Origin: a virus
Taxonomy: Duplodnaviria > Heunggongvirae > Uroviricota > Caudoviricetes
Length of the DNA stretch: 64,000 bases
Reading direction: 5' to 3' (one strand)
IMG/VR virus record: IMGVR_UViG_3300032103_000073
Under the pieces are notes generated by a model. It saw only the letters and a program-made list of their open reading frames with translations, made no database searches and had not been told where the DNA came from. The position numbers and the translations under genes are program-made. The stretch's first letter is position 1; each line of letters opens with the position of its first letter. Positions 43,390 to 55,005 of the stretch are shown here, in pieces.

Positions 43390-43933
43390 AAAACTTGATA
43401 ATTCTTTTTTAAATTTAGAACTAGATTGGAAGTCGTTTATAACAGATGATATATTTACAGAATATTATTCTAAAAAACGCGGCGGCGGTAGCTTCTTTTA
43501 TACCCTGCCTTGTAGTAAGAAAGACTTCTTAAATCTGCAAAAAAAGAATATTTTTACTATCGAACCAACTTTTATCCAGTACTGCGAATTTACCGGTCCC
43601 GGTTTGGTTACTCCGCATATTGACCGAGGGTCAACTGTTGCATTGAACTTTTACCTGGAACCGCAAGGTGATCGCACAATTTTTTATGAAACTACTTTAG
43701 ACTGTGACAGTGGTACCGGGTACCACGGGGATAAATCAAAGTTGTCATATGTAACAGACTTGAGCACCTTAAAAGAAATAGGATCTTTTGTTGCTGCACC
43801 ACTTGACGTTTATTTGCTAGACGTTAACAAATTGCACGGGATAGAAAAAGTAAACGACCTGCCGCGAACAATGATTACCTTCAGGTGGTTTAAACATTCG
43901 TATGAAGAAGTGTTATCAAGCCTGTCCTTATAA
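43382..43933 (+). CDS. Fe(II)/2OG dioxygenase-like paralog
   Basis: TPHIDRGSTVALNFYL ... KLHGIEK (HxD...H). Confidence 0.4.
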   Translation: MFKKLDNSFLNLELDWKSFITDDIFTEYYSKKRGGGSFFYTLPCSKKDFLNLQKKNIFTIEPTFIQYCEFTGPGLVTPHIDRGSTVALNFYLEPQGDRTIFYETTLDCDSGTGYHGDKSKLSYVTDLSTLKEIGSFVAAPLDVYLLDVNKLHGIEKVNDLPRTMITFRWFKHSYEEVLSSLSL

Positions 43934-43938
43934 AATAA

Positions 43939-43967
43939 TTGACACAAAGGCTAAATAGAAGTACAAT
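43939..43967 (+). promoter_or_regulatory. promoter (TTGACA-N17-TACAAT)
   Basis: upstream of tRNA-Thr. Confidence 0.6.
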
Positions 43968-43975
43968 AACAACAT

Positions 43976-44052
43976 TGCTGGATTAGCTCAGTTGGTAGAG
44001 CACTCGCCTTGTAAGCGAAAGGTCGTCAGTTCGAACCCGACATCCAGCACCA
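43976..44052 (+). tRNA. tRNA-Thr (TGT)
   Basis: cloverleaf; loop CTTGTAA; CCA encoded. Confidence 0.8.
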
Positions 44053-44086
44053 AAGTTAAATTTTTTATCTATTTTGCCAAAAGATA

Positions 44087-44115
44087 TTGACACAAGAGAT
44101 AAATAAACTTATAAT
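44087..44115 (+). promoter_or_regulatory. promoter (TTGACA-N17-TATAAT)
   Basis: consensus hexamers. Confidence 0.6.
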
Positions 44116-44164
44116 AGAAGCTTACGTTAACAAAGTTAGCGTAGAAATTTTTAGGAATAACCAA

Positions 44165-44314
44165 ATGCAAACGATTGCGAAACATTTTAGTCAGTTTAGT
44201 TCACAAGCCAAACAGGTGGCAATGCCCACCTATTGGTGTGCTCTAGGCTCTGGCTCTAATGATCGCACACCGGAGATTAGGTCAGGGTTCCATGAAGGAT
44301 CAGGTTACGCATAA
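44165..44314 (+). CDS. hypothetical small protein
   Basis: ATG 44165 after the promoter (track ORF begins at 44087). Confidence 0.35.
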   Translation: MQTIAKHFSQFSSQAKQVAMPTYWCALGSGSNDRTPEIRSGFHEGSGYA

Positions 44315-44337
44315 GTAATCAAAGAATTCAAAAGGAA

Positions 44338-44370
44338 CCCTGGAACTAAAAACTCCAGGGTTTTTGTTTG
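44338..44370 (+). terminator. rho-independent terminator
   Basis: ccctggaactaaaaactccaggg stem plus T-run. Confidence 0.8.
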
Positions 44371-44379
44371 CTGAAAAGG

Positions 44380-44760
44380 AAAAATGATAGACACCGAGAC
44401 AAGAATTAAACAGCAAGCAGAATGGTTGAAGTTGCATACTTTAACTCAGGAGCAAACGAAAGTTTTGATCCAGAACAAGTTAAGGCGTGCAACAGAGATG
44501 CATACTGCTTTAAACAAGCGAGAGGTGCTTTGTAAGCTCCGTTAAAATCGCAAACGTGGGATAGGGAACGCGACCCTGCAGACACGCAAAACACTGCTAG
44601 TAATGTGGGCGGCCTACCCGATGGTAAGTCTATGGTGAGAACGTAGATGTGTAAAACGGTAGAGTATTAAAGTGTATTAGGTCCCACACCAGGCAATTGG
44701 AGCCGAAATGTCGTCTAGTATACTTTAATACACACATTCGAAAGAGTGTGTTAACAAATA
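44380..44760. other. ORF-free structured region (candidate ncRNA)
   Basis: no ORF of 60 aa or more; multiple inverted repeats (e.g. acacacattcgaaagagtgtgt). Confidence 0.35.
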
Positions 44761-44761
44761 T

Positions 44762-44839
44762 GTACGGGTGGCAGAGAGGCCCAATGCAACGGTCTGCAAA
44801 ATCGTAAAACCGTCGGTTCAAATCCGACCCCGTACTCCA
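44762..44839 (+). tRNA. tRNA-Cys (GCA)
   Basis: cloverleaf; loop CTGCAAA. Confidence 0.65.
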
Positions 44840-44845
44840 AATTTA

Positions 44846-44923
44846 GCGTGGTTAGTGTTTAACGGCCTAGCACGACTGGCTTCCACCCAGTAAGAAAGAG
44901 TTCGAATCTCTTACCCCGCACCA
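44846..44923 (+). tRNA. tRNA-Gly (TCC)
   Basis: loop CTTCCAC; one acceptor mismatch. Confidence 0.6.
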
Positions 44924-44928
44924 AATTT

Positions 44929-45004
44929 ATCCTGTTAGTTTATCGGTTTAGAACAGTGGCCTTTCAAGTCGCAGAGACGGGTTCGATTCCCGTACAGGAT
45001 GCCA
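44929..45004 (+). tRNA. tRNA-Glu (TTC)
   Basis: loop CTTTCAA. Confidence 0.7.
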
Positions 45005-45011
45005 AGTTAGT

Positions 45012-45085
45012 AGGGGTATAGTGTAATGGTAGCACAACACACTTTGACTGTGTCGGTCTAGGTTCAAATCCTGGTACCCCCGCCA
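45012..45085 (+). tRNA. tRNA-Gln (TTG)
   Basis: strong similarity to the E. coli tRNA-Gln scaffold; loop CTTTGAC. Confidence 0.75.
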
Positions 45086-45092
45086 ATTTTAT

Positions 45093-45170
45093 CTCTGCGT
45101 AATGTCAATCTGGTAGACGGCCTGATCTGGAGTCAGGAGGCTGTAGGTTCGAATCCTACCGTGGAGACCA
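45093..45170 (+). tRNA. tRNA-Pro (TGG)-like, atypical (C33)
   Basis: anticodon arm CCTGA-TCTGGAG-TCAGG with C at position 33. Confidence 0.5.
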
Positions 45171-45177
45171 ATTTTAT

Positions 45178-45216
45178 ATCTCCGTAGCTCAATCAGGCAG
45201 AACACCGGTTTTGTAT
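45178..45216 (+). pseudogene. truncated tRNA 5' fragment (acceptor, D-arm and anticodon 5' half)
   Basis: ATCTCCGTAGCTCAATCAGGCAGAACACCGGTTTTGTA; no matching 3' half; resembles the 5' half of the tRNA at 49363. Confidence 0.55.
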
Positions 45217-45225
45217 AAATAAGCT

Positions 45226-45855
45226 ATGAACTATATAATTTACAAGACTACAAATCTGCTAAACGGTATGTACTACATTGGTTCTCATCAAACCAATGAC
45301 TTAAATGACGGATACTTAGGTTCGGGTAAACATTTAAAAAGAGCCATTACTAAGTACGGCAGAGAAAATTTTAAATTTGAAATTCTTTACTTTCTTCCCT
45401 CAAAAGAGGAAATGTTTAAAGTAGAACGAGAAATCGTAAATGAATCTTTTGTGCAAGATCCGCTAACGTATAATTTAAAAATCGGTGGTAGCGGAGGGAA
45501 TCCTGGTATTATCGGAGCTTTTTCTGGAAGAAGGCATACCGAAGAAACTAGAGAAAAAATGAGAGTTTCGAGGTCGAAACAAGCGCCCATGTCAGAAACA
45601 AGTAGACAAAAACTTTCAGAAAATAACTGGTCTAAAAGAGATCCCGGCGCGCATAGAGAACACATGCGTAAGATAGCATCTATGCCACGGTCGGAAGAAC
45701 ATAACAAAAAAGTCGCCGAAGCAAACATAGGCAAAACAATAGTTAATAATGGTATTATTGCTAAAAGAATAGATAAGAAAGATTTGAGCTACTATGAAGA
45801 TAGTGTTGGAAAAGAGGCGCAATGCCTCGTAAGAAATAATATGCCCTTAAGATAA
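45226..45855 (+). CDS. GIY-YIG homing endonuclease (Seg-like)
   Basis: IIYKTTNLLNGMYYIGSH...KRAITKYG GIY-YIG module plus basic C-terminal DNA-binding region. Confidence 0.75.
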   Translation: MNYIIYKTTNLLNGMYYIGSHQTNDLNDGYLGSGKHLKRAITKYGRENFKFEILYFLPSKEEMFKVEREIVNESFVQDPLTYNLKIGGSGGNPGIIGAFSGRRHTEETREKMRVSRSKQAPMSETSRQKLSENNWSKRDPGAHREHMRKIASMPRSEEHNKKVAEANIGKTIVNNGIIAKRIDKKDLSYYEDSVGKEAQCLVRNNMPLR

Positions 45856-45915
45856 CGGCAGTCGTCAGGTCTCCAAAACCTTGAAGTCGCGGTTCGAATC
45901 CGTGAGGGTATGCCA
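45841..45915 (+). tRNA. tRNA-Trp (CCA)
   Basis: acceptor ATGCCCT/AGGGTAT; loop CTCCAAA; overlaps the last 15 nt of the endonuclease ORF. Confidence 0.65.
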
Positions 45916-45922
45916 ATTTAAT

Positions 45923-46014
45923 GGAAAGTAATGCAGCGGGGATGGTCCTGCGACTGGCCTTGAAAACCAGGTTCTCAGAAATGGGATGGGGTTCGACTCC
46001 TCTGCTTTCCGCCA
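45923..46014 (+). tRNA. tRNA-Ser (TGA)
   Basis: type II; loop CTTGAAA; resembles E. coli tRNA-Ser. Confidence 0.75.
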
Positions 46015-46184
46015 ATTTTGAGACTGCTCTACGGGCACTGCAATGAACGTAGACAGGTTGTGTGGTGTGTTGGCAGCACAGCGGAAGCGAGTACCTAACA
46101 GAAAAGTTTGCAGACCGAGTAAGTTAGCGAAAGGGGAGCAGGGTTAGGTTCGAATCCTATCACATTTACTCAAATCTAATATAT
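46015..46184 (+). other. unassigned tRNA-like/structured RNA with a T-arm (GGTTCGAATCC)
   Basis: no ORF; T-arm motif at 46143-46159; no consistent acceptor pairing found. Confidence 0.3.
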
Positions 46185-46278
46185 AGTGAGTTGACAGAGT
46201 CTGGCTAATTGTGCCTCCCTGCTAAGGAGTGCGTCCTTGAAAGAGGGCACAAGGGTTCGAATCCCTTGCTCACTGCCA
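46185..46278 (+). tRNA. tRNA-Ser (GCT)
   Basis: type II; loop CTGCTAA; long variable arm. Confidence 0.75.
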
Positions 46279-46310
46279 AGTTGTCGAATGTTAAGATAAA
46301 TAAATTCATG

Positions 46311-46335
46311 CGGCTGTAGCTCAGTTGGTAGATTT
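46311..46335 (+). pseudogene. truncated tRNA 5' fragment (acceptor plus D-arm)
   Basis: GCGGCTGTAGCTCAGTTGGTAGA followed by unrelated sequence and the HNH gene. Confidence 0.5.
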
Positions 46336-46376
46336 ATGCGATAGAGTATAAATACAGTATAGGAGATACTCTACCA

Positions 46377-46763
46377 ATGAAAGCAATTTGCTTACAATGT
46401 AATAAAGATTTTGAATACGGGCATAGTTCCACTGGGAAGTTTTGTAGCAACCAGTGTAGCGGCTTATATAAGAAAACAGAACATAAACAAAAGTTCTTTT
46501 CAGGTTTGTTAAAACGAATTGAACGACCTACAGCAAGGAAATATCTTGCTGAGGAAAGAGGATATAAATGTGAAGTATGTAGCGTAAGTGATTGGCAAGG
46601 CAAGCCAATCACTTTACATGTAGATCATATAAATGGCGATCCGTCAAACGATCACCCAGGTAACTTAAGGTTAATTTGCCCTAACTGCCATAGTCAAACA
46701 GAGTTTTTGGGTGCGGCAAATAAAGGTAGAGGACGCGGTTCATTAGGAATCGCAAAGTATTAA
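46377..46763 (+). CDS. HNH homing endonuclease
   Basis: CxxC ... HVDHINGDPSNDHPGNLRLICPNCH (HNH with zinc ligands). Confidence 0.75.
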   Translation: MKAICLQCNKDFEYGHSSTGKFCSNQCSGLYKKTEHKQKFFSGLLKRIERPTARKYLAEERGYKCEVCSVSDWQGKPITLHVDHINGDPSNDHPGNLRLICPNCHSQTEFLGAANKGRGRGSLGIAKY

Positions 46764-46838
46764 GCAGGATTAATTCAGTGGTAGAATGTCTCGTTGCCAA
46801 CGAGAATGTCGTCGGTTCGAACCCGACATCCTGCTCCA
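46764..46838 (+). tRNA. tRNA-Gly (GCC)
   Basis: loop TTGCCAA; begins one nt after the HNH stop. Confidence 0.8.
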
Positions 46839-47061
46839 AATAACACGGCTCCTATCATTTGCTCATTGAGGAATGCTTGGGAGTTCTTTTATAAACTTCT
46901 AATGAACGCTCTTGCAGATGCCATGCTGGTAAAAAACTTCATGTCAAACTTTAGCGTATACAAATCGAGAACAAAGATATAGCAAACATCATTAGTCTCT
47001 GTCATAGACAAGTGGATTAATAACCCGCCTTTAGTTATAGAGTCGTATGTTTGCATTAAAA

Positions 47062-47138
47062 TATTTATCATGGGTCTTTAACTCAGTTGGATAGAGTGCC
47101 AGTCTTCGAAACTGGAAGTCGTGGGTTCGAATCCTGCA
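47062..47138 (+). tRNA. tRNA-Arg (TCG)
   Basis: loop CTTCGAA. Confidence 0.7.
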
Positions 47139-47163
47139 AGACCCGCCAATTATAAATATTAAC

Positions 47164-47760
47164 ATGATACTAAAGTACAGAGATCCAAGATTTTATTCTG
47201 TAGATTCGTTGAAGTGCTGGAAAAATGTCAACGTTCCTTTAAATGTTGTTCATCCCGATGCAACTATAGACATTAGATCAAATAGTTTGAAAGAAATATT
47301 GCTTCCATTATCTGCAATAGATCCCAATTTTAAATTATGGTTAGCAGAACTAGGATTAGAAATTTCCCTAGTAAGATTGTTTATTGCTAGTGCAAATTAC
47401 GAGTATACAAAACATGTAGATCGTCAAACATTTAACGACCAGTCAGTGGCGTTAAATTTTGCCTTCGATGACACTGGCACTGTTTTTTCATGGCATAATT
47501 TAAATAAAGATGGCAGGATCGAAGTTACAAAAAATAAAAACAATATCCCGATTTGGAATTTTTCCAACTGTGCTACTGTTTTGGCAGAAGAAATTAAACA
47601 TCGAGAAAATCAGCCGTTTTTAGTCAACACTGGATATATTCATTCTTTAAAAGTTGGCAATCAGGACAGACATTGTTATAGTTATTTCCTGCGGAAAGCC
47701 GGTACAGCCGTTCCGTTGCAATGGGATGATGCAATAATAGCATTTGACAGATTTATATAA
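47164..47760 (+). CDS. Fe(II)/2OG dioxygenase-like paralog
   Basis: KHVDRQ...LNFAFDD...NTGYIHSL; paralog of 52449. Confidence 0.45.
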   Translation: MILKYRDPRFYSVDSLKCWKNVNVPLNVVHPDATIDIRSNSLKEILLPLSAIDPNFKLWLAELGLEISLVRLFIASANYEYTKHVDRQTFNDQSVALNFAFDDTGTVFSWHNLNKDGRIEVTKNKNNIPIWNFSNCATVLAEEIKHRENQPFLVNTGYIHSLKVGNQDRHCYSYFLRKAGTAVPLQWDDAIIAFDRFI

Positions 47761-47764
47761 TTAA

Positions 47765-47839
47765 CTCGCTGTAGTTCAATGGATAGAACAGTTCTCTCCT
47801 AAAGAATAGATCCAAGAATCGAACTTGGTGGCGAGACCA
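47765..47839 (+). tRNA. tRNA-Arg (CCT)
   Basis: loop CTCCTAA; unusual T-loop AATCGAA. Confidence 0.6.
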
Positions 47840-47853
47840 TAAAGGAGATCGTA

Positions 47854-48027
47854 TGAAAACACTTTACTTTGAAAATATTCGCAACCGCGAACGCTTTTAT
47901 TGTAAAAACGCTCGAGACATACATATGATCGACGGCATTGAATACATGAAAGTTTTTAGACTGGGAACGCAACGCGAAGTTCTTGTTAAACGAGAATCTC
48001 TCAAGAAAGTTGCAGAGCCCAAGTAAG
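47854..48027 (+). CDS. hypothetical small protein (57 aa)
   Basis: SD AAAGGAG plus ATG. Confidence 0.35.
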
Positions 48028-48101
48028 GCTGCTATAGTATAATGGTATTACATACCCTTGGTAAGGGTAAAACACAAGTTCAATTCTTGTTAGCAGCACC
48101 A
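48028..48101 (+). tRNA. tRNA-Thr (GGT)
   Basis: loop TTGGTAA. Confidence 0.8.
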
Positions 48102-48105
48102 TTAA

Positions 48106-48134
48106 TTGACACAAAATAGAGAACATGCTACAAT
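48106..48134 (+). promoter_or_regulatory. promoter (TTGACA-N17-TACAAT)
   Basis: drives leader A and the tRNA-like at 48347. Confidence 0.6.
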
Positions 48135-48139
48135 AGATA

Positions 48140-48346
48140 CAAGTTAAGAAATTAACTGTTTTGATAGATGTTGTTGGGAGCGATCCCCCACAACAGAGAT
48201 GTAAGGTCCTCAACTGCGAGGCGTTAGCAACATTTATCATCTTGTTCTTTAAAAATTTGCAGTGTTGTTTAGGCTGATTGACGGCAATCGAAAAGCAGTC
48301 TGAGTCTTGTCCCCGGCGCACCGCTTTGCCGAGCGTACCGCAGGGA
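48140..48346 (+). other. structured leader A (candidate small RNA), homologous to leader B
   Basis: shared 5' box AGAT(A/G)(C/T)AAGTTAAG(A/C)AATTAACT and a GGGA(A)GCGATC hairpin. Confidence 0.4.
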
Positions 48347-48420
48347 GTCTCTATAGTGTAAGGGTAGCACGCCAGCTTGTAAGAGTTGGAGGATTGGGTT
48401 CGAATCCCAATAGAGTTTAA
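48347..48420 (+). tRNA. tRNA-Gln-scaffold paralog with an 8-nt anticodon loop (TTGTAAGA); no CCA
   Basis: D-arm and T-arm nearly identical to the tRNA-Gln at 45012; stem CCAGC/GTTGG encloses 8 nt. Confidence 0.4.
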
Positions 48421-48453
48421 CAAGACATCAGCCTAAACAACATTGCAAATAAG

Positions 48454-48482
48454 TAGACACAAATTCTTGTGTTTGCTATAAT
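48454..48482 (+). promoter_or_regulatory. promoter (TAGACA-N17-TATAAT)
   Basis: drives leader B and tRNA-Glu. Confidence 0.5.
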
Positions 48483-48489
48483 AGATGTA

Positions 48490-48641
48490 AGTTAAGCAAT
48501 TAACTTACTTGCTCTTTAAAAAGTTCATCCAACATATAAGTCGCTGGGAAGCGATCATTATATGCAAACACATTAGATCAGCTACCGGCGAAGGGAGTAA
48601 CCGGCGATTGTTAAAGTGAGTGTGTTTACATATAATGTTTT
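48490..48641 (+). other. structured leader B (candidate small RNA)
   Basis: homologous to leader A. Confidence 0.4.
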
Positions 48642-48716
48642 ACTCGGTTCGTCTATCGGTTAGGACGACAGCCTTTCAAGTTGTAAAGACGGGTTCGATT
48701 CCCGTACCGAGTACCA
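48642..48716 (+). tRNA. tRNA-Glu (TTC), second copy
   Basis: loop CTTTCAA; T-arm identical to the copy at 44929. Confidence 0.7.
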
Positions 48717-49362
48717 AAAATAATCGTAGCGGTTGATGAGACTGATTAAACAAGTCAACTGAATAATCTCCCACAGATCAGTTGTAAAGGAGAACGTCTA
48801 AACACTAAGGCAATGCTTAGTACTATAGTAGATGGAAACCGACCCCTGTCAGAGCGCGGGGGCTTTTACAGTGTTTATAGTAGAGTAGGAAGTATCCGAA
48901 GCGACTTAGTTAGGATGCAGCCAACAGACCAACATTGACCGCGTAGATAGTCCGGACTATCGCTTGAAACGGAAGATGCGTCCACCCCCTGCCCTGCTTT
49001 ACTATAAACACTGTGAACGATGCGAAAGTAAGTCGGTCCAGTAGGGTAAGGAAAAGTATTGCTAGCGGAAAGAGCTGCCGAAGGACAGAAGTTAGTCCCG
49101 CATGGCAATGACTAATGCGGATAGGCTAACGCCGTGTAATCCTTCAAGAATTTGCTAACACAGGGTGGATTTACATGCCGATGTGTTTAATGTTGTTTAA
49201 AACCGAGCAGTGTGCCTTATCAGCGCAATAGTTAGACTCTACCTGGCAACAGCAAACCAAATGTAAGATAGTTGCTATCGCGTCCTGCAGGTAAGTTAGC
49301 AACCGTAACATCACGGACGGGCGTATTTTATGCCGTGTAATCAAATGCGACTCAGTAATTTA
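48717..49362 (+). other. about 640-nt ORF-free structured region (candidate ribozyme or ncRNA; group-I-intron-like P7 elements)
   Basis: AGATAGTCCGGACTA (48947-48961) and GTTAGTCCCGCATGG / GACTAATGCGGATA about 140 nt downstream; G/C-rich helices. Confidence 0.35.
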
Positions 49363-49437
49363 GCTCTGTTATTTCATGTGGTAGAATACCGGTTTTGTAG
49401 TCCGGAGAGGGCAGTTCAAGTCTGTCACGGAGCACCA
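49363..49437 (+). tRNA. tRNA with anticodon arm CCGGT-TTTGTAG-TCCGG (TGT, Thr-like; U:U closing pair)
   Basis: cloverleaf with CCA; anticodon assignment uncertain. Confidence 0.5.
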
Positions 49438-49503
49438 TATTAAAACACATTACTAAGAGTCCAGGTTCATAGCGTGGCCTAGTGTGTTTTAATATGTTTA
49501 TGT

Positions 49504-49581
49504 CCGGGTGTAGCGCAGTCTGGTTAGCGCATCTGCTTTGGGAGCAGAGGGTCGTGAGTTCGAATCCCACCACCCGGACCA
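49504..49581 (+). tRNA. tRNA-Pro (TGG)
   Basis: loop TTTGGGA. Confidence 0.75.
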
Positions 49582-49590
49582 AGTTTATGT

Positions 49591-49668
49591 TGGGGTATAG
49601 CTTAGTTTGGCCTAAAGCAACGGTCTTTGAAATCGTGATCACTGGTTCGAATCCAGTTACCTCTGCCA
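49591..49668 (+). tRNA. tRNA-Gln (TTG), second copy
   Basis: loop CTTTGAA; U1:U72. Confidence 0.6.
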
Positions 49669-49724
49669 AGTTTTAGGAGAATCGCGTAAGCGTATTCTTA
49701 ATCGACCCAGTATCAGGGCGTCCT

Positions 49725-49752
49725 GACATTAGTATTTTTTGGGGGCAGCAGC
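49725..49752 (+). terminator. hairpin plus T-run (weak terminator)
   Basis: tcagggcgtcctga ... tttttt. Confidence 0.35.
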
Positions 49753-49827
49753 GGGCTGCGGTGATCCCTTGCAAGGATCATGACTAGAAGGGTTCAACTC
49801 CCTCGGCCTCCACCAAACAATGCCCGG
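49753..49827 (+). tRNA. tRNA-Ala (TGC)-like
   Basis: G3:U70; loop CTTGCAA; atypical D region and 8-nt variable loop; T-loop TTCAACT. Confidence 0.5.
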
Positions 49828-49833
49828 TTAATT

Positions 49834-49907
49834 AAATGGTATAATACACCCCTGATAAGGGTGAATCACTGGATCGTAACCAGTACTGGGTACCAATGTT
49901 AGTTAGA
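49834..49907 (+). tRNA. tRNA-Ile (GAT)
   Basis: loop CTGATAA. Confidence 0.7.
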
Positions 49908-49948
49908 GCATTCTGTTGATCTATGATAAATAATATTATGGAGACAAT

Positions 49949-50542
49949 ATGTTTTGTAAATTTTGCAACAAAGAATGTAAGAATAAGAATAGTCTAGTAA
50001 ACCATGAGCGTTTATGTCCAGCGAACCCTGACAGAAAATATGTGTCACACACGCTAGGTAAAAACGGTCATGTCGCTTGGAATAAAGGACTGTCCAAAGA
50101 AACTTCTAGATCTTTGGCACAGTTAAGTGAAACACATAAGCGAAACGGTCACGGTGGCTGGTCTAAGAAAGCTAGTTCCAACGGAGGCAAAGCAGGTGGC
50201 GGATATCGTGAAAATGCAGGAAGAAGTAAGAAATTCAAAGTAGTCGATTCTTTCGACAAAACGGTGTGCTTGCAAAGCACATACGAACTTAGATGCAGTC
50301 GACTATTGAATGAGTTGGGCATTAAGTGGATAAGACCATCAGCATTAAAGTATGATAGTAAAAATTATTTTGCTGATTTTTATTTACCGGAGTATGATTT
50401 GTATCTAGATCCAAAGAATAATTATAAAGCAAAATTGGATACTGACAAAATCAATAAAGTAAAAGAACAAAATAATGTAAGAGTTGTGATTCTCACTGAG
50501 GATCAGTTGACTCAAGATTATATAAAAAGCCTTTGTAGTTAA
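49949..50542 (+). CDS. zinc-finger protein, possible homing-endonuclease-like
   Basis: N-terminal CKFC...HERLC zinc finger; basic middle region; inserted between tRNAs. Confidence 0.35.
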   Translation: MFCKFCNKECKNKNSLVNHERLCPANPDRKYVSHTLGKNGHVAWNKGLSKETSRSLAQLSETHKRNGHGGWSKKASSNGGKAGGGYRENAGRSKKFKVVDSFDKTVCLQSTYELRCSRLLNELGIKWIRPSALKYDSKNYFADFYLPEYDLYLDPKNNYKAKLDTDKINKVKEQNNVRVVILTEDQLTQDYIKSLCS

Positions 50543-50602
50543 ATGGTATAACGGTCGCTTGATAAGCGATTATTACAAGTTCAATTCTTGTCGAAGGCAC
50601 CA
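50529..50602 (+). tRNA. tRNA-Ile (GAT)-like, second copy
   Basis: loop TTGATAA; overlaps the preceding ORF's 3' end. Confidence 0.55.
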
Positions 50603-50841
50603 AGTTTTGTAGCGTTAGCAAGAGAAAAGTACCAATTCGTGTAGCTGGCCAGCGAAAGAGGAGGTAAAACAGGAGGGGGTTCAACTCCCCACCGCGGGTA
50701 GCCATGCGGTAGCTGGAATGGAGCATCTGACCAAGTATCCCAAGTAACAAGTCCTGGAAGAACTCGACGTAAGGAAGTCCGGCTCTGTACGTCTAAACAC
50801 TAGTGATAAACCTGAGGACGCTAGGCTACAAATTAATTTAT
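50603..50841 (+). other. ORF-free structured region with a tmRNA-type T-arm motif (GGGGGTTCAACTCCCC)
   Basis: motif at 50667-50682; no CCA end. Confidence 0.3.
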
Positions 50842-50917
50842 TCCCCAGTAGCACAGCGGTAGTTGCGCCTGACTGTTAATCAGGATGTCCGTGGTTCGAT
50901 CCCACGCTGGGGAGCCA
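50842..50917 (+). tRNA. tRNA-Asn (GTT)
   Basis: loop CTGTTAA. Confidence 0.75.
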
Positions 50918-50971
50918 ATTAATAAACACATTGCCGAGCGACGAAGGAAATGAGTAGTGTGTTTTTTAATT

Positions 50972-51061
50972 GGAGAGTGTTCCCGTCAGCGGCCTGTAAA
51001 GTCGTTGTCCTTAATTTGGCGGGTGGCTGGACAGATGGTTCGATTCCTTCACTCTTCACCA
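50972..51061 (+). tRNA. tRNA-Tyr (GTA)-like, atypical (reduced D-arm, about 28-nt variable arm)
   Basis: acceptor GGAGAGT/ACTCTTC; anticodon arm GCGGC-CTGTAAA-GTCGT as in E. coli tRNA-Tyr. Confidence 0.45.
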
Positions 51062-51066
51062 ATTTT

Positions 51067-51141
51067 GGCCTTGTCATATAGTGGTTATTATACCGGTCTG
51101 TCTAATCGGATATCGGGGTTCGATTCCCCGCAAGGTCGCCA
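51067..51141 (+). tRNA. tRNA-Asp (GTC)
   Basis: loop CTGTCTA (U37). Confidence 0.6.
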
Positions 51142-51148
51142 GTTTAAT

Positions 51149-51225
51149 GCGTCTGTAGCTCAGTTGGATAGAGTACTTGGCTACGAACCAAGGGGTCGTG
51201 GGTTCGAATCCTGCCAGACGCGCCA
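51149..51225 (+). tRNA. tRNA-Arg (ACG)
   Basis: loop CTACGAA. Confidence 0.8.
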
Positions 51226-51230
51226 AATAT

Positions 51231-51307
51231 GCCAATGTAGCTCAGACGGTAGTAGCAGCGGATTGAAAATCCGCGTGTCGGTGGTTCGATTCCACTCGTT
51301 GGCACCA
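51231..51307 (+). tRNA. tRNA-Phe (GAA)
   Basis: loop TTGAAAA. Confidence 0.8.
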
Positions 51308-51453
51308 GTTAAGGGATAGACGGTACGATGAGTCCCACACAACCTAGCATTGGGTCTAGCAATGCGAAACGGCAGATCGGTTGAAGTGGTTGTATAAACT
51401 CTTGTATGCGAGACAATCCGGTAAGGTCTGCGGGAACAGACGAGCTGGGCTCC
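51308..51453 (+). other. ORF-free structured spacer (candidate ncRNA)
   Basis: no ORF; G/C-rich hairpins. Confidence 0.3.
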
Positions 51454-51530
51454 CAATCTATATGCCTTGGTGACGGAATTGGTATACGTGCTTGACTCAA
51501 AATCAAGATTCTGTGGGTTCGAGTCCCACC
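51454..51530 (+). tRNA. class-I (short variable arm) tRNA with Leu anticodon CAA
   Basis: arm CTTGA-CTCAAAA-TCAAG; 4-nt variable loop. Confidence 0.55.
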
Positions 51531-51531
51531 C

Positions 51532-51560
51532 AAGGTACCAGTTGACACAAAATAGCAGAT
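51532..51560 (+). promoter_or_regulatory. promoter (TTGACA-N17-TATAAT) plus SD and 7-codon mini-ORF (MKRSGKR)
   Basis: AACAGGAG then ATG 51585 and stop 51606. Confidence 0.55.
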
Positions 51561-51681
51561 GCTATATAATTTAATTTTAAACAGGAGTATGATATGAAAC
51601 GTTCAGGTAAACGATAGTGTCATCCTAGACCCCGTAATTGGTCTGGGTTGGCACGTAAAAGAAAATGTAATTTACGACTAA

Positions 51682-51755
51682 CCCTTCGAGATGTTATGGT
51701 TGCATAGCGGACTCTTAATCCGACAAGTGACGGTTCAAATCCGTCCGGAGGGACC
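51682..51755 (+). tRNA. tRNA-Lys (CTT)
   Basis: loop CTCTTAA; 4-bp anticodon stem. Confidence 0.6.
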
Positions 51756-51761
51756 AATTAT

Positions 51762-51835
51762 GGGATTGAAGCTTTAAGGTGAAGCAACGGACTTTTAATC
51801 CGTAGATCTGGGATCGTTGGCCCAGCAGTCCTACC
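51762..51835 (+). tRNA. tRNA-Lys (TTT)
   Basis: loop CTTTTAA; atypical T-loop. Confidence 0.65.
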
Positions 51836-51956
51836 ATATAAAAACACATTATTAGTTCAGTAGAGAACGATAACAGGCCATCTTTTGGTAGATCAGTATG
51901 TTATAGGACAACAGATGAAATTTCTGTTATAGTGTGTTTCTATATGGTATTTTTAT
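51836..51956 (+). other. spacer with hairpin and T-runs (terminator-like)
   Basis: aacagatgaaatttctgtt hairpin. Confidence 0.3.
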
Positions 51957-52032
51957 GCAGCGTTTAGTGGAGTGGTTACCATACTTGTCTGTGAAACAAG
52001 TGAGAACGGTTCGAATCCGTAACGTCTGCCCA
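51957..52032 (+). tRNA. tRNA-His (GTG) with G-1 and a bulged U in the acceptor 3' strand
   Basis: loop CTGTGAA; G-1:C73. Confidence 0.55.
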
Positions 52033-52227
52033 AACAATATTTTTTGTTAAGCTGTAGTTTAAATGAAAGCCTGAGTGTTTCCCGACGGGGATTAGCAAGG
52101 GACGCGGTAAGTTAGTAGACAAAAACGACAATGGGCCCTGCGTTGTTGGCGGCTACTGATGATGACAATAGAATAACGTCCGCGGAGGACGAGGTGCTCA
52201 GAGTTGAGCCAGCTTTACAAAGAATAT
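52033..52227 (+). other. ORF-free structured region (candidate ncRNA)
   Basis: 195 nt, no ORF. Confidence 0.3.
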
Positions 52228-52303
52228 GGTGATGTAGCTCAGTTGGTAGAGTACCTCCTTCATACGGAGAGTGTCGGCGGTTCAAGTCCGTCCATCACCA
52301 CCA
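52228..52303 (+). tRNA. tRNA-Met (CAT), elongator-like
   Basis: loop TTCATAC. Confidence 0.7.
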
Positions 52304-52310
52304 AATATAA

Positions 52311-52437
52311 TCTGTAGGTGCTGAAACGGTAGACAGCAGACGGCAGTCTGTGTAAAGGGTTCGAATCCCTTGGAAGTCCGCAAGACTTTTAGTATGGTAC
52401 TATTGGTGGTTCGAGTCCATCCCTGCAGACCAAATAA
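52311..52437 (+). ncRNA. about 125-nt tRNA-like element (acceptor CTGTAGG/CCTGCAG, CCA, two T-arm-like hairpins)
   Basis: 7-bp terminal pairing, D-arm-like helix, internal AAGGGTTCGAATCCCTT and GGTGGTTCGAGTCCATC. Confidence 0.4.
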
Positions 52438-52448
52438 ATAAATAGTCA

Positions 52449-53051
52449 ATGGAACAAAAATTTTTATTTGCAGAAAAGTCAAAATGTTTTAGACACATCA
52501 CTATGCCGTTTACCTTTATTCAACCGCATGTTCCTATCGATCTGACTAGCATTACTTCTCCTAAGGAAATACACATTAATATCAATTCAGTAGACGCCTG
52601 TTTTATAACATGGTTGCATAATCTAGGTTTGTATTCACTCCATCCTAGGTTATTTGTTACTCCGCCTGGGACAAAATACAATATCCATGTTGATATTTTG
52701 TTCCCGCGAGAAAATACTGCTACTTATTTAAATTTTCCGTTTAATGACGCTGGTTCATTTATGAGGTGGTTTAATTTAAAAAACGAAAAAAATGCTTATA
52801 TAACAACTACTAGTGTAGAAGACAAAAAATTTCAAGTTATTAATGCAAACGAAGATGATTGCTCTGTTATCGAAATTATGCACGCGCCCGGCAATTCTCC
52901 TATATTAGTTAATGCCGGTTACTTACATGATTTAACGAATCCGAGTAATTTCAGACATTGTTGGAGTTTCCCTTTGCTAAAATTAATCGACAACACACGA
53001 ATAAATTGGGACGAAGCAGTGGAGATTTTTTCCTCTTACATTAAAAATTAA
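52449..53051 (+). CDS. Fe(II)/2OG dioxygenase-like paralog
   Basis: IHVDIL...LNFPFNDAG...NAGYLHDL. Confidence 0.45.
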   Translation: MEQKFLFAEKSKCFRHITMPFTFIQPHVPIDLTSITSPKEIHININSVDACFITWLHNLGLYSLHPRLFVTPPGTKYNIHVDILFPRENTATYLNFPFNDAGSFMRWFNLKNEKNAYITTTSVEDKKFQVINANEDDCSVIEIMHAPGNSPILVNAGYLHDLTNPSNFRHCWSFPLLKLIDNTRINWDEAVEIFSSYIKN

Positions 53052-53574
53052 CAGGTAAGTCAAATATTCGAATCAGTAGCATCACTCGCATATTTGGAGA
53101 TTTGTTTTCTACTCTATGCGGAACTTTAACCGATAGCAAATAAGGCACAGAAGTTTCGTGAGATTCTATTAACTTACAATCATCCGGGTAGTACCTGAAA
53201 AAATGATGAGTTTTTCCTTTATTTTCTACTGTTACTACGTGCGGGTTTGCTAGCGTGTTATAAAAATTTATCCAAGTATTTTCGCACCCAGAAATGGGAA
53301 TGTTTAAACTATATCGGTAAGGACCGCTGTCCATATGATAATTTCCGTTGTCATATCCCATTGTTACATTTATTGCAACCTGGCCTACGCAATGGTTGGG
53401 TAATTTTAGATCATTAATTACTTTTTTGATAGACGGAAGTGTTAAAAAAACATCTTTGTTATTTTCTATATAAGTTAAATTAGTAGAAAGCAAAAGGTGT
53501 TTGGGTATAGACATCAATACTTCGTTTTGTATGTCTGTGAGATTTTCTATATGTATTTCTCTAAAAGGAGCCAT
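53041..53574 (-). CDS. Fe(II)/2OG dioxygenase-like paralog
   Basis: YHMDSGPYRYSLNIPISGCENTWINF...VPHRVEN; paralog of 18783. Confidence 0.45.
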   Translation of the reverse strand: MAPFREIHIENLTDIQNEVLMSIPKHLLLSTNLTYIENNKDVFLTLPSIKKVINDLKLPNHCVGQVAINVTMGYDNGNYHMDSGPYRYSLNIPISGCENTWINFYNTLANPHVVTVENKGKTHHFFRYYPDDCKLIESHETSVPYLLSVKVPHRVENKSPNMRVMLLIRIFDLPVNF

Positions 53575-54195
53575 ACTAGTATTTATAAAATATCTCGCAG
53601 ATCAAGTTTATGTGGCGTGTATAGGTCATACACGATTTCTGGCAGTTGAAGTGACAGGAGTAATTATCCTGAGAACGATACTGGTGCTGGGAGGTAACGT
53701 TGCCCGGCGAGAAATCCGAGATTGTTTGCGTTCGAGTCGCAAACGCTACACACAAAGTTTCTTGCAAGAAGAACAGAGGTACGGTGGTCCTACTTGAGTG
53801 GGGACTATAAAAGCCGACAAACGCCTGGGGTACAACTCCATACGCTCAGCCAAATAAGGCGGATTCTGTTTCTCCGTAACAGCCCTAGCAGGCACCTGAA
53901 AAGGACTTGGGACAGCGTATTGCTACATCGACGACGAAATGTCGAGCTGGAGAATGTAACCAGCATCCATAGTCAATAACATTCATCATTGGTAGATAGC
54001 CTTAAGCGGTTGGCAAACCGGGACTACACTACGAAGCAGCTTAGCCAGCGCGATGAAAAGACCCTTTACGTCGAGAGTGTTATTGACTATGGTCCACAAG
54101 GGTGGTATGTAGGCAACGTGGATTTGCCGAGGACCGGGATTCCTTAACTAGCCAACAACTAGTGCCATATAGTATATTGGTATTACATTTATAAT
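53575..54195 (+). other. about 620-nt ORF-free structured region (candidate ncRNA or ribozyme)
   Basis: no ORF of 100 aa or more; AGGTAACGTTGCCCGG; AACCGGGACTAC / CATAGTC elements. Confidence 0.35.
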
Positions 54196-54270
54196 GTCCG
54201 GTTATTTCAGCGGTAGAATACTTCCATGACACGGAAGAGGTCACTGGTTCGATCCCAGTACCGGACACCA
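54196..54270 (+). tRNA. tRNA-Val (GAC)
   Basis: loop ATGACAC. Confidence 0.7.
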
Positions 54271-54271
54271 A

Positions 54272-54300
54272 TTGACACAAAATCACAGAACAACTATAAT
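54272..54300 (+). promoter_or_regulatory. promoter (TTGACA-N17-TATAAT)
   Basis: upstream of the tRNA at 54304. Confidence 0.6.
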
Positions 54301-54303
54301 AAC

Positions 54304-54380
54304 AACTAATAATGCCCCGGTGGTGGAATTGGTAGACACGCTACGTTGAGGTCGTAGCATTTGCAGGTTCGAGTCCTGTC
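54304..54380 (+). tRNA. class-I tRNA with Leu anticodon GAG (G37)
   Basis: 5' half resembles E. coli tRNA-Leu (TGGTGGAATTGGTAGACAC) but the variable loop is only 4-5 nt. Confidence 0.55.
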
Positions 54381-54432
54381 CAGGGTACCATTGAATGTAA
54401 AGTTAAATACATATGTAAACAAAGGAGTAATC

Positions 54433-54993: not shown

Positions 54994-55005
54994 ATTGAGG
55001 GTGAT

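Follow-up and report, generated by a model that had tools for sequence, protein, structure and literature searches.

Two, and probably three, of the nuclease genes in the window (the whole stretch of viral DNA analysed here, 64,000 nucleotides) sit in a broken tRNA gene, each accompanied by an intact copy of the tRNA concerned. The same layout, here called "disrupt-and-replace", is found in dozens of phage contigs. In the literature searched, we found no description of such a layout, with truncated tRNAs or tRNA pseudogenes adjoining phage homing endonucleases. We think it likely that each unit is a mobile cassette lying within a resident tRNA gene of the same isoacceptor that it carries. As judged by comparison of the sequences, the remnants are displaced resident alleles and not local duplications, and the intact tRNA arrived together with the endonuclease gene. 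The three units comprise the following features.

45178-45211, + strand: resident tRNA-Trp(CCA) 5' remnant (positions 1-33), ending just 5' of the anticodon; from its top tRNA matches.
45212-45225, + strand: conserved left end of the GIY-YIG element, TGTATAAATA-N4; from conservation across loci.
45226-45855, + strand: SegB-like GIY-YIG homing endonuclease gene, 209 aa; from Pfam, identity to SegB and metagenomic homologues.
45841-45915, + strand: intact carried ("cargo") tRNA-Trp(CCA); ARAGORN, Rfam tRNA 42.1 bits.
46310-46332, + strand: resident tRNA-Gly(GCC) 5' remnant (positions 1-23); from matches to genes of loci L059 and L009.
46333-46376, + strand: 5' UTR of the HNH element; near-invariant in L033-L041, with a covarying hairpin.
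46377-46763, + strand: HNH homing endonuclease gene, 128 aa; Pfam HNH_3/HNH match.
46764-46838, + strand: intact carried tRNA-Gly(GCC); ARAGORN, Rfam tRNA 68.2 bits.
49898-49920, + strand: piece of a tRNA-Ile(GAT), covering about positions 14-36, with its end directly 3' of the anticodon and CTATGATAAATA next; from tRNA matches.
49949-50542, + strand: putative endonuclease ORF, 197 aa; phrog_9019 at 1.2e-7.
50529-50602, + strand: intact cargo tRNA-Ile(GAT), sharing 14 nt with the 3' end of the ORF at 49949-50542; ARAGORN, Rfam tRNA 68.8 bits.

The ORF at 45226-45855 matched the Pfam GIY-YIG model PF01541 at 23.9 bits (cutoff 22.6). Its residues 1-91 were 55% identical to the catalytic domain of T4 SegB (E 2e-30), and the YIIY...YIG, Arg, Glu and Asn motif positions of the two proteins lined up. 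A NUMOD3-type module (PF07460) scored 17.4 bits in this ORF, below the cutoff of 20.4; precomputed PF07460 matches were present in some of its homologues, and 750 metagenomic homologues were found at E<=1e-20. ARAGORN placed tRNA-Trp at 45841-45915, overlapping the 3' end of the ORF by 15 nt. This cargo tRNA was 63/74 identical to the cargo Trp of L042, the two forming one lineage, and was distinct from resident-type Trp genes.

The fragment in front of the GIY-YIG element (fragment 1) was compared with 443 tRNAs, taken from the window and from related loci, and its best four matches were all tRNA-Trp, with scores of 23, 22, 21 and 21; the best score outside these four was 17. It was 28/33 identical to the Trp of L048 and corresponds to the cargo type of that locus. 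Fragment 1 lies in register after tRNA-Pro and a 7-nt spacer, ATTTTAT, that is reused elsewhere in the tRNA block. Directly 3' of it, at 45212-45221, stands TGTATAAATA, the conserved end of the element, and the apparent TGT "anticodon" of the fragment is part of that end. A preliminary description of this DNA had paired fragment 1 with the tRNA at 49363, and the fragment was first read as tRNA-Thr(TGT) from a 12/12 match of ACCGGTTTTGTA to that gene. With the loop set aside, its identity became ambiguous and no relation to the tRNA-Thr at 49363 was left. The Thr reading was dropped because the cassette homologues show that TGT is the element end and that the body of the fragment is tRNA-Trp.

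The ORF at 46377-46763 matched HNH_3 (PF13392) at 24.8 bits, exactly the cutoff, and PF01844 at 20.3 bits, below the cutoff of 21.4. It contains the HNH (beta-beta-alpha metal) motif HVDHINGD...NLRLICPNCH with CxxC pairs at 65-68 and 101-104, and it has 542 metagenomic homologues at E<=1e-10, several of them 95-97% identical. By ARAGORN, tRNA-Gly(GCC) begins at 46764, the base 3' of the HNH stop codon. The endonuclease classes and the positions of the downstream tRNAs were thus as the preliminary description had given them. The cargo Gly agrees at 73/75 positions with the cargo of L040, which belongs to a different array, and both differences fall in one compensatory T-stem pair. A hybrid origin of the Gly gene at 46764, part cargo and part resident, was considered and rejected, since the same tRNA is found complete in L040, in another array. 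The fragment preceding the HNH element (fragment 2) matched the intact Gly(GCC) genes of L059 and L009 at 23/23 and 21/23 positions, and its match to the Gly downstream of it was gapped (18/21). It runs directly on from a spacer that is homologous to the one 5' of the intact gene in L009.

Both fragments are real 5' parts of tRNA genes, as had been described, with their coordinates corrected to 45178-45211 and 46310-46332. From the identities of the fragments and the downstream tRNAs, each nuclease therefore precedes an intact tRNA of the fragment's isoacceptor. They are best read as footprints of the insertion of an endonuclease gene into a tRNA gene, in agreement with the earlier proposal. 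The other part of that proposal, that the 5' end of the downstream gene had been duplicated, did not stand: the fragments differ from the downstream tRNAs (fragment 1 gave no meaningful alignment to the downstream Trp) and match alleles of other phages, 28/33 in L048 and 23/23 in L059.

Against the tRNAs of the window, the best local alignment scores of the fragments were 17 and 18-19. Among 4000 random 40-nt windows of non-tRNA sequence, one reached 17 and none reached 19. An nhmmer profile made from the window tRNAs barely detected fragment 2 (E 2.9) and missed fragment 1; because such a profile is too weak for pieces of 23-33 nt, it was replaced by alignment scores set against the sampled null. 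No 3' remnants were found in the window. Megablast of 44700-47200 against GenBank phages gave short tRNA matches only, tblastn of ORF 47164 against phages gave no match, and neither did scans of viral contigs with ORF 47164 and with a 25-mer of fragment 1. Contigs encoding the exact ORF 47164 protein were 100% identical to the window and thus uninformative. The tRNA arrays of this phage group are heavily shuffled. A further orphan tRNA 5' fragment, with no nuclease gene adjoining, lies at 54168-54188.

Comparison with relatives that have no endonucleases had been proposed in the preliminary description, and it gave the expected result. In loci L009 and L010 the order is Cys-Ile-Trp-Gly(GCC), with the genes intact, Trp and Gly(GCC) among them, and with neither nucleases nor truncated fragments. 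These loci encode a 58%-identical orthologue of the neighbouring ORF 47164 and share flanking spacers with the window. The site therefore shows presence/absence variation among related genomes within one syntenic block.

A third cassette, consisting of a putative nuclease gene and tRNA-Ile(GAT), is probably present at 49898-50602. The gene at 49949 had been noted as endonuclease-like, which agrees with our results; that it has the same layout, with a tRNA-Ile(GAT) fragment of its own, had been overlooked. The C-terminal part of its product resembles Holliday-junction-resolvase/PD-(D/E)XK nucleases, and 16 related loci were found in viral contigs. The top three matches of the fragment at 49898-49920 were Ile(GAT) genes, and it was 20/23 identical to the gene in L038. 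In 11 of 13 close homologues the ORF overlaps tRNA-Ile(GAT) by 14-45 nt, and the loci homologous to this cassette contain Ile(GAT) 5' halves with an identical end point.

Relatives of the GIY-YIG element were counted in L042-50, L052-53, L079-81, L085 and the window. tRNA-Trp was next in all of the approximately 17 loci with readable downstream sequence, overlapping the ORF by 10-15 nt in most. Nine of ten distinct contexts had a different Trp 5' remnant each, all ending at position 33 before TGTATAAATA, and the sequences of these nine remnants differed right up to the junction. The sequence TGT(A/G)TAAATA, followed by 4-5 nt and ATG, was conserved in L045-L053 and L079-L088, and L042-44 had a 9-nt insertion. 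Trp 3' remnants starting in the T-loop were also present in L047, L079 and L081. In L081 the 5' and 3' remnants came from different alleles and did not match each other.

The HNH element recurs in the same manner in L033-L041 (96-97% protein identity), L055-L060 (61-75%) and L078 (69%), and tRNA-Gly(GCC) stood 0-14 nt past the stop codon in 15/15 loci examined. Genes 96-97% identical were found in at least six different array contexts, with PhyH-like, superoxide dismutase or Rpb6-like ORFs, or tRNA-Trp, tRNA-Val or tRNA-Arg, as upstream neighbours. Where a Gly remnant was present, it always ended in GGTAGA. Its D-arm part, TAGCTCAGTTGGTAGA, was almost invariant between loci, and its acceptor part varied by genome (GCGGCTG, GCGGGAA, GCGGATG, GCGGGTG, GCGGGCG), with the element about 90-92% identical between genomes whose acceptor parts differ. 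In L033, L034 and L035 the HNH element, cargo included, lies between a 5' and a 3' Gly remnant whose acceptor strands are complementary and covary (GCGGGAA/TTCCCGC, GCGGATG/CGTCCGC and GCGGGTG/TACCCGC). The anticodon arm (Gly positions 24-48) was absent where 3' remnants exist. L055-57, L060 and L078 had only a short GGTAGAG piece without the 23-nt remnant; from these loci and the allele mismatch in L081, the history was therefore not one simple insertion per genome. L059 carries a Gly of the fragment 2 type (23/23) and keeps a remnant of the L033 cargo type (22/23). This, and the match of fragment 1 to the L048 cargo type, fits reciprocal targeting.

The two elements differ in the sequences in front of their ORFs. 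In the HNH element, 46340-46348 pairs with 46367-46375, and the loop of this hairpin holds a T4-type late-promoter box, TATAAATA, at 46347-46354 and a Shine-Dalgarno sequence, GGAG, at 46362-46365. The 5' UTR is near-invariant in L033-L041. In L055-L060 compensatory changes preserve the hairpin, with 90% of cells paired and both sides altered in 4 pairs, a covariation matched by 2/500 shuffles; the fold z-scores of single window sequences were marginal, about -2. With a box in the loop and a compensatory stem, the HNH element has the arrangement of T4-type control, in which the box lies in or next to a hairpin covering the translation start. In the GIY-YIG element the box alone is conserved, at 45214-45221 inside the left end and 4-5 nt before the ATG, and no Shine-Dalgarno sequence was found in 45212-45225. 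With the box so close to the ATG, a T4-like start would give a leaderless or truncated mRNA. TATAAATA was not enriched in the window (7 found, 4.9 expected). For T4 segB, a translation-blocking hairpin and cutting of the mRNA by tRNA maturation have been proposed, and T4 also offers a precedent for a late promoter within such a hairpin (PMC2988022, PMC2330249). Expression of the cassettes may follow this pattern: a TATAAATA late promoter would lie inside a hairpin that masks the translation start on read-through transcripts, and tRNA 5' processing would cut the nuclease mRNA at or before the stop codon.

The cassette we propose has three parts: a late-promoter box, the gene of a free-standing homing endonuclease, and an entire tRNA gene that abuts the 3' end of the ORF or is fused to it. 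Its insertion points are fixed, after position 33 in Trp, 23 in Gly(GCC) and 36 in Ile(GAT). The 5' part of the resident gene stays behind as an orphan, in some other genomes together with the T-arm and 3' end past the cargo, and the carried tRNA maintains the phage's supply of that tRNA. From the sequences we infer the cleavage specificity, the immunity of the cargo and the homing of the cassette. On co-infection, the nuclease would cut uninterrupted resident-type alleles near the junction, and the cassette-bearing genome would serve as template for repair of the break. The conserved D-arm and T-arm of tRNAs would provide short homology arms, so that a cassette could enter any array in any gene order. 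The cargo allele would escape cutting because its D-stem (Gly) or anticodon stem (Trp) differs. Somewhat favoured, on present comparisons, is the broader view that these units form a guild of at least three unrelated families (GIY-YIG, HNH and PD-(D/E)XK-like), each with one isoacceptor, a break at a fixed nucleotide and a nuclease-resistant replacement allele, in which rival variants hit each other's cargo.

Several other origins of the fragments were weighed. They may travel with the element, as a homology arm, an operator or a hairpin arm, and not derive from the tRNA gene of each genome. The near-invariance of TAGCTCAGTTGGTAGA and the mismatched remnants of L081 fit this explanation, and the older GGTAGAG/GATAGAG piece is clearly element-borne, forming the 5' arm of the conserved hairpin. 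The acceptor part, however, varies by genome next to an element that is about 90-92% identical, the 5' remnants of L033, L034 and L035 pair perfectly with the covarying bases of the far-side 3' remnant, the Gly remnant of the window runs into a spacer homologous to that before the L009 gene, and the nine Trp remnants vary up to the junction. We regard travelling fragments as unlikely. Local tandem duplication or segmental amplification of tRNA and nuclease, as by SegB in T6, is more improbable still. SegB drives amplification of tRNA-Tyr/segB with junctions at which microhomology links the 5' end of the tRNA to the 3' end of segB (PMC13096335), and the GIY-YIG protein of the window is SegB-like; the fragments, however, do not copy the tRNA next to them (fragment 1 unalignable, fragment 2 gapped) and agree with other phages' alleles, the nuclease gene is not repeated, and an identical junction recurs in unrelated array contexts.

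The nucleases might also reside in introns or split tRNA genes, the fragment supplying the 5' exon and a 3' half the remainder of a working tRNA. The Trp and Ile insertions do lie in the anticodon loop, the usual site of bacterial group I tRNA introns (PMC3984707, PMC13011429), and a 3' remnant is present at some other loci. Yet an Rfam search of 43500-55000 at E<=1 returned neither group I introns nor other ribozymes, the complements of the fragment acceptor strands (CGGAGAT, CAGCCGC) are absent from the whole tRNA array, and the same isoacceptor is encoded in full inside the would-be intron. In loci with 3' remnants the split gene has lost its anticodon arm, so splicing could not yield a tRNA. 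With neither a ribozyme core nor exons that join into a complete tRNA, an intron is scarcely credible. Equally little weight is given to ordinary decay, in which the fragments would be tRNA pseudogenes left by array shuffling and lie near nucleases by coincidence. Such shuffling and the nuclease-free fragment at 54168-54188 speak for it, but fragment and downstream tRNA share their isoacceptor for three different nuclease families, and junction positions are constant over dozens of loci. The mobile cassette therefore remains our preferred explanation.

The closest known system is T4 SegB, which is also encoded by a free-standing GIY-YIG gene within a phage tRNA array with a tRNA directly after the ORF; the shared identity is confined to the catalytic domain, the C-terminal DNA-binding part of the window protein being unrelated to that of SegB. 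SegB likewise recognises a feature of tRNA genes, the T-arm motif GGTTCRANTCC (PMC2330249), and co-localisation of segB and tRNA genes is statistically widespread. In contrast to the window genes, T4 segB lies between intact tRNA-Ile and tRNA-Arg without a remnant, and its preferred site lies not in a neighbouring tRNA but in the tRNA-Asn of T2L; the window cassette interrupts, at a fixed nucleotide, the gene of the isoacceptor that it carries. The T5 genes F-TflI/II/IV are HNH-type genes embedded in a tRNA cluster (cited in PMC2330249). The HNH homologue of the T5-like HdH2 (34% identical) ends exactly at the start of tRNA-Thr, and, unlike with the window gene, no remnant of the same isoacceptor was found upstream. 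In the cultured relatives T4 segB, HdH2 and Vibrio phage 1.081.O, the nuclease adjoins a tRNA and no clear same-isoacceptor remnant was found. In Aeromonas phage Ah1, a weak and non-significant resemblance was seen between GCGCTCGGTATTCC upstream and GCGCTCGGCCTTCC in the downstream Gly(TCC).

Islands and prophages that integrases insert into tRNA genes resemble the cassettes in that tRNA sequence brought by the element keeps a working gene and a displaced fragment marks the border (PMC9897764). Those islands use a site-specific recombinase, duplicate the 3' part, span tens of kilobases and occur in bacterial chromosomes, whereas the window element is about 0.5-0.7 kb, has a nuclease gene, leaves the 5' part, brings a complete tRNA and occurs in phage genomes. 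It consists of a nuclease ORF and a tRNA only, and neither a Tyr/Ser recombinase nor att repeats were found. Like group I introns that bear homing endonuclease genes in tRNA anticodon loops, the cassettes are inserted at one fixed nucleotide, are present in some relatives and absent from others, and encode a nuclease whose presumed target is the uninterrupted allele; they differ in having no ribozyme or splicing, so that a whole replacement gene pays the cost of interruption. Free-standing endonuclease ORFs of mitochondria replace the 3' end of atp6 or cox genes with one that they bring along. They too carry a part-copy of the disrupted gene, the displaced original becoming a pseudogene fragment, but the genes are protein-coding, the fusions are in frame and the genomes are those of organelles. 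We know of no tRNA case of this kind of replacement.

Homing endonuclease genes were believed to persist within genes mainly by means of self-splicing introns or inteins, or else beside their target. The cassettes suggest another solution, which is to break the target gene and carry a spare. The proposed model would explain duplicate isoacceptors and orphan tRNA pieces in phage arrays, scrambled gene order between close relatives, and nuclease ORFs that run into the next tRNA. For annotation, such fragments should not be labelled tRNA pseudogenes of unknown origin. If the units do form a guild as outlined above, they would represent a third way, besides self-splicing introns and inteins, to occupy an essential gene cheaply; the targeting of rival cargo would drive fast turnover of tRNA alleles and heavy shuffling of arrays, and the tRNA D-arm and T-arm would act as universal homology arms. 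Phage tRNAs counter host defences that cut tRNAs, and elements that spread variant tRNA alleles may thus shape this conflict. The HNH enzyme is predicted to cut tRNA-Gly(GCC) genes with a GCTC/GAGC D-arm and to spare those of the ATTC/GAAT type.

The window derives from a large phage (source contig 267 kb) and has a GC content of 41%. ARAGORN called 32 tRNA genes in it, the majority in an array at 43977-54390, and Rfam added a few further tRNAs absent from these calls. The following features are encoded in the window.

403-1641, ClpX homologue
45226-45855, GIY-YIG ORF (Pfam, 23.9 bits versus a cutoff of 22.6)
45841-45915, tRNA-Trp, overlapping the final 15 nt of the GIY-YIG ORF
46377-46763, HNH ORF (Pfam), inside the tRNA array like the GIY-YIG ORF
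61497-62396, T4 RnlA-like RNA ligase

The catalytic domain of the GIY-YIG ORF showed 55% identity to T4 SegB. The first base of tRNA-Gly(GCC) is the base directly after the stop codon of the HNH ORF. ARAGORN and Pfam recovered both nuclease ORFs and the tRNAs overlapping or abutting them as the preliminary description had them.

A 5' part of a tRNA gene lies upstream of each nuclease ORF, at 45178-45211 (fragment 1, tRNA-Trp positions 1-33) and 46310-46332 (fragment 2, tRNA-Gly(GCC) positions 1-23, sequence GCGGCTGTAGCTCAGTTGGTAGA). Fragment 1 is separated from the preceding tRNA-Pro by a 7-nt ATTTTAT spacer, a spacing like that of its neighbours, and contains U8 and A9, a GG-bearing D-arm and one strand of a 5-bp stem. 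The best alignment scores of the two fragments against the tRNAs of the window were 17 and 18-19; among 4000 random 40-nt non-tRNA windows, a score of 17 was attained once and a score of 19 never, which marks both as genuine tRNA 5' parts. The fragments noted in the preliminary description were thus confirmed, but their coordinates and the identity of fragment 1, taken there as a Thr type, needed correction. Without its loop, the identity of fragment 1 was ambiguous. Up to position 33, its best four matches among 443 tRNAs were all Trp (23, 22, 21 and 21; next 17), and it was identical at 28 of 33 positions to the tRNA-Trp carried by L048, another phage locus. Because fragment 1 fits exactly the pattern of the GIY-YIG loci described below, the TGT in it belongs to the element and is no Thr anticodon, and the Thr assignment was dropped. 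Fragment 2 was identical (23/23) to the intact tRNA-Gly(GCC) carried by the L059 variant. No matching 3' acceptor strand for either fragment was found anywhere in the array and no intron ribozyme was detected with Rfam, which rules out an intron or a split tRNA.

A homologue of the ORF at 47164-47760 (58% identity) was found on two ENA contigs, L009 and L010. They share with the window, at ~70-76% DNA identity, the upstream structured spacer, tRNA-Cys, the 231-nt spacer after tRNA-Gly(GCC), tRNA-Arg(TCG), this ORF, tRNA-Arg(CCT), a 57-aa ORF and tRNA-Thr(GGT). The gene order in L009/L010 is Cys-Ile-Trp-Gly(GCC), with neither nuclease genes nor fragments in the block. Fragment 2 and its preceding spacer align to the L009 spacer and the first 23 nt of the intact tRNA-Gly(GCC) and diverge beyond, and the intact Gly gene of the window aligns over the full L009 gene and continues into the common downstream spacer. 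This comparison with a relative lacking the endonucleases supports the proposal that the fragments are footprints of insertion. They had been regarded as partial duplications of the target gene; instead, they derive from resident alleles that were displaced, and the intact tRNAs downstream are cargo. We refer to a nuclease gene and its cargo tRNA, lodged in a resident tRNA gene of the same isoacceptor, as a cassette, and to the leftover parts of the resident gene as remnants.

At E<=1e-10, 542 homologues of the HNH protein were found, and identity was 95-97% for several. Of these, P0008 (96%) was encoded in five or more distinct contexts (L033/36, L034, L035/37, L038 and L039) and P0007 (97%) in a further one (L040/41). 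DNA similarity to the window was ~90% from 46308-46310 through 46800. At the left junction, sequences upstream of the element were unrelated, and the acceptor part of the tRNA 5' piece was genome-specific (GCGGCTG, GCGGGAA, GCGGATG, GCGGGTG or GCGGGCG); from GGTAGA on, a nearly invariant element followed, opening with TTTATGCGrTAGAGTATAAATACAG. At the right junction, a complete tRNA-Gly(GCC) followed the stop codon, identical in L033-L038 and different by one base in L039. In L033, L034 and L035, the cargo tRNA was followed by GAATAAAGCAGGTC and then by the T-arm and 3' end of a second tRNA. Within each of these genomes, the 5' and 3' pieces had perfectly pairing acceptor strands, which covaried between genomes (GCGGGAA/TTCCCGC, GCGGATG/CGTCCGC and GCGGGTG/TACCCGC); the HNH element therefore sits within a resident tRNA gene, in place of approximately positions 24-48. 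The L040 cargo was identical to the window tRNA at 46764 at 73 of 75 positions, both differences forming one compensatory pair; the HNH nuclease thus travels with at least two cargo alleles. Among distant homologues (61-75% identity; L055-L060 and L078), tRNA-Gly(GCC) came next in all, within 1-14 nt. The L059 remnant matched the L033 cargo at 22 of 23 positions and fragment 2 is of the L059 cargo type; HNH variants therefore appear, from these sequence matches, to displace one another's cargo alleles.

The GIY-YIG protein had 750 homologues at E<=1e-20. In loci 69% (L042-44), 54-65% (L045-L053) and 60% (L079-L088) identical to the window protein, the next gene was tRNA-Trp wherever downstream sequence sufficed, overlapping the ORF by 10-15 nt in most. 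A tRNA-Trp 5' part lay upstream in 9 of 10 distinct contexts. These remnants varied in acceptor and D-arm sequence, all kept AATGGCAG, a hallmark of the Trp genes of this family, and all stopped at position 33, followed by TGTATAAATA, 4-5 nt and ATG. A 3' Trp remnant was present beyond the cargo in L047, L079 and L081, where conservation extended through GTCAAGGTTC and ended there, which places the right junction in the T-loop. The T-loop is the motif recognised by T4 SegB (PMC2330249). The 5' and 3' remnants were complementary in L079 and non-complementary in L081, indicating a more complex history at some loci.

A third cassette was found in the array.

49898-50602, partial tRNA-Ile(GAT) fragment, GATAAATA box, 197-aa ORF and overlapping intact tRNA-Ile(GAT)
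49949-50542, the nuclease-like ORF of 197 aa, PD-(D/E)XK-like, with a weak match to Holliday-junction-resolvase-type nucleases

The ORF and the tRNA-Ile(GAT) at 50529 overlap by 14 nt, and tRNA-Ile(GAT) was overlapped likewise in 11 of 13 close homologues on viral contigs. Several homologues had an Ile(GAT) 5' half upstream, ending right after the anticodon and followed by CTATATAAATA; the window fragment (49898-49920) matched an Ile(GAT) gene in 20 of 23 nt, with CTATGATAAATA next to its 3' end. Judged from sequence, one layout is therefore common to three unrelated nuclease families, GIY-YIG, HNH and the putative third. Just upstream, at 49822-49895, is another complete Ile(GAT) gene, whose T-loop is unusual (GGATCGTAACC). 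Distant members of the three families adjoin or overlap tRNA-Gln(TTG), Met(CAT), Gly(TCC) and Cys(GCA) (L061 1369, L076/L077 1594, L003 4620 and L004 3610), which suggests that target isoacceptors switch as the nucleases diverge.

The cassettes have a constant layout, with fixed junctions beside variable remnants, in resident genes that they split and that are uninterrupted at the empty site, and each nuclease clade is strictly paired with an isoacceptor. We infer that each nuclease would cut uninterrupted resident-type alleles near the junction, and that repair would then copy the cassette by way of short homology in the D-arm and T-arm. Cargo alleles would escape cutting because their sequence differs from the target. 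The Gly D-stems are GCTC/GAGC in the target and ATTC/GAAT or GTTT/AAAC in the cargo; for Trp, target and cargo differ in the anticodon stem.

Phage tRNA clusters are already known to harbour nuclease genes, such as those of T4 SegB and the T5 F-Tfl enzymes (PMC2330249), and segB-tRNA co-localisation was the subject of a 2026 survey. In GenBank, the GIY-YIG gene is most closely related to one gene of Aeromonas phage Ah1 and one of Vibrio phage 1.081.O; each of these, too, is part of a tRNA array and shares 14-15 nt with the tRNA that follows it. No clear remnants were found in T4, HdH2 or Vibrio phage 1.081.O. In the literature searched, we found no description of a remnant with a same-isoacceptor cargo tRNA and fixed junctions, of this layout in three nuclease families or of reciprocal displacement of cargo alleles. 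Mitochondrial endonuclease ORFs bring a replacement gene end and are one of the two nearest analogues in logic. The other is formed by integrase-driven islands, which regenerate the tRNA gene into which they insert (PMC9897764).

In the HNH 5' UTR, a hairpin with the stem GGTAGAG/CTCTACC ends at the start codon, and its loop holds the late-promoter box TATAAATA and a Shine-Dalgarno sequence. The stem is kept through compensatory changes: 90% of alignment cells were paired and 4 pairs changed on both sides, as reached by 2 of 500 shuffles, with single-sequence fold z-scores of only ~-2. This promoter/hairpin arrangement has been described for I-TevI, segB and mobE of T4-type phages (PMC2988022). 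The 5' arm looks like an old D-arm remnant, co-opted for the hairpin. Where ORF and tRNA overlap, tRNA 5' processing would remove the nuclease stop codon; such mRNA cutting has been proposed for segB and tRNA-Arg (PMC2330249). In the GIY-YIG cassette, the box is just 4-5 nt ahead of ATG without a Shine-Dalgarno sequence, which suggests, speculatively, a leaderless late mRNA. TATAAATA was not enriched within the window. It lies exactly 5 nt before ATG, again without a Shine-Dalgarno sequence, at ORF 47164 (47151-47166) and ORF 53041-53574(-) (53574-53587(-)). This spacing, also that of the GIY-YIG cassettes, is a hint of leaderless late mRNAs in the phage.

Further nuclease-related features and array elements were observed. 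An HNH_5 endonuclease gene (54433-54993, E 8e-16) starts directly after tRNA-Leu(GAG), and a NUMOD3/HNH-like gene (62367-63083(-)), preceded by TATAAATA at a distance of 22 nt, extends into the end of the RnlA-like gene. An orphan tRNA 5' fragment without an adjoining nuclease gene, at 54168-54188, matches positions 6-26 of tRNA-Thr(GGT) at 48028 in 20 of 21 nt; it lies 7 nt ahead of tRNA-Val 54196 and may be the leftover of a lost cassette. Absent from the ARAGORN calls were a Ser(TGA)-like long-arm tRNA (45923-46013), a ~150-nt RNA with a T-arm at its end and no CCA (46020-46175), an orthologue of L009 Arg(CCT) (47765-47839), another long-arm tRNA-like gene (50971-51062) and a region with two T-arms (52310-52440). 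The tRNA at 48346-48419 lacks a 3' CCA and has an anticodon loop of 8 nt (read as 'gtaa' by ARAGORN); it could be frameshift-suppressor-like or decayed. The ~600-nt GC-rich stretch from tRNA-Glu to tRNA-Thr (48720-49350), with no convincing ORF and no Rfam match at E<=1, may be a structured RNA. Sigma-70-like promoters (TTGACACAA-N17-TAnAAT) recur at ~43941, 44088, 48106 and 54273, ahead of tRNA blocks or small ORFs. The 29-mer TAATACACACATTCGAAAGAGTGTGTTAA (44726-44754; hairpin ACACAC/GTGTGT), directly ahead of a block's first tRNA, is exact in the window, L009/L010 and 12 otherwise diverged phage contigs (L021-L032), and may be a processing or transcription signal of the array.
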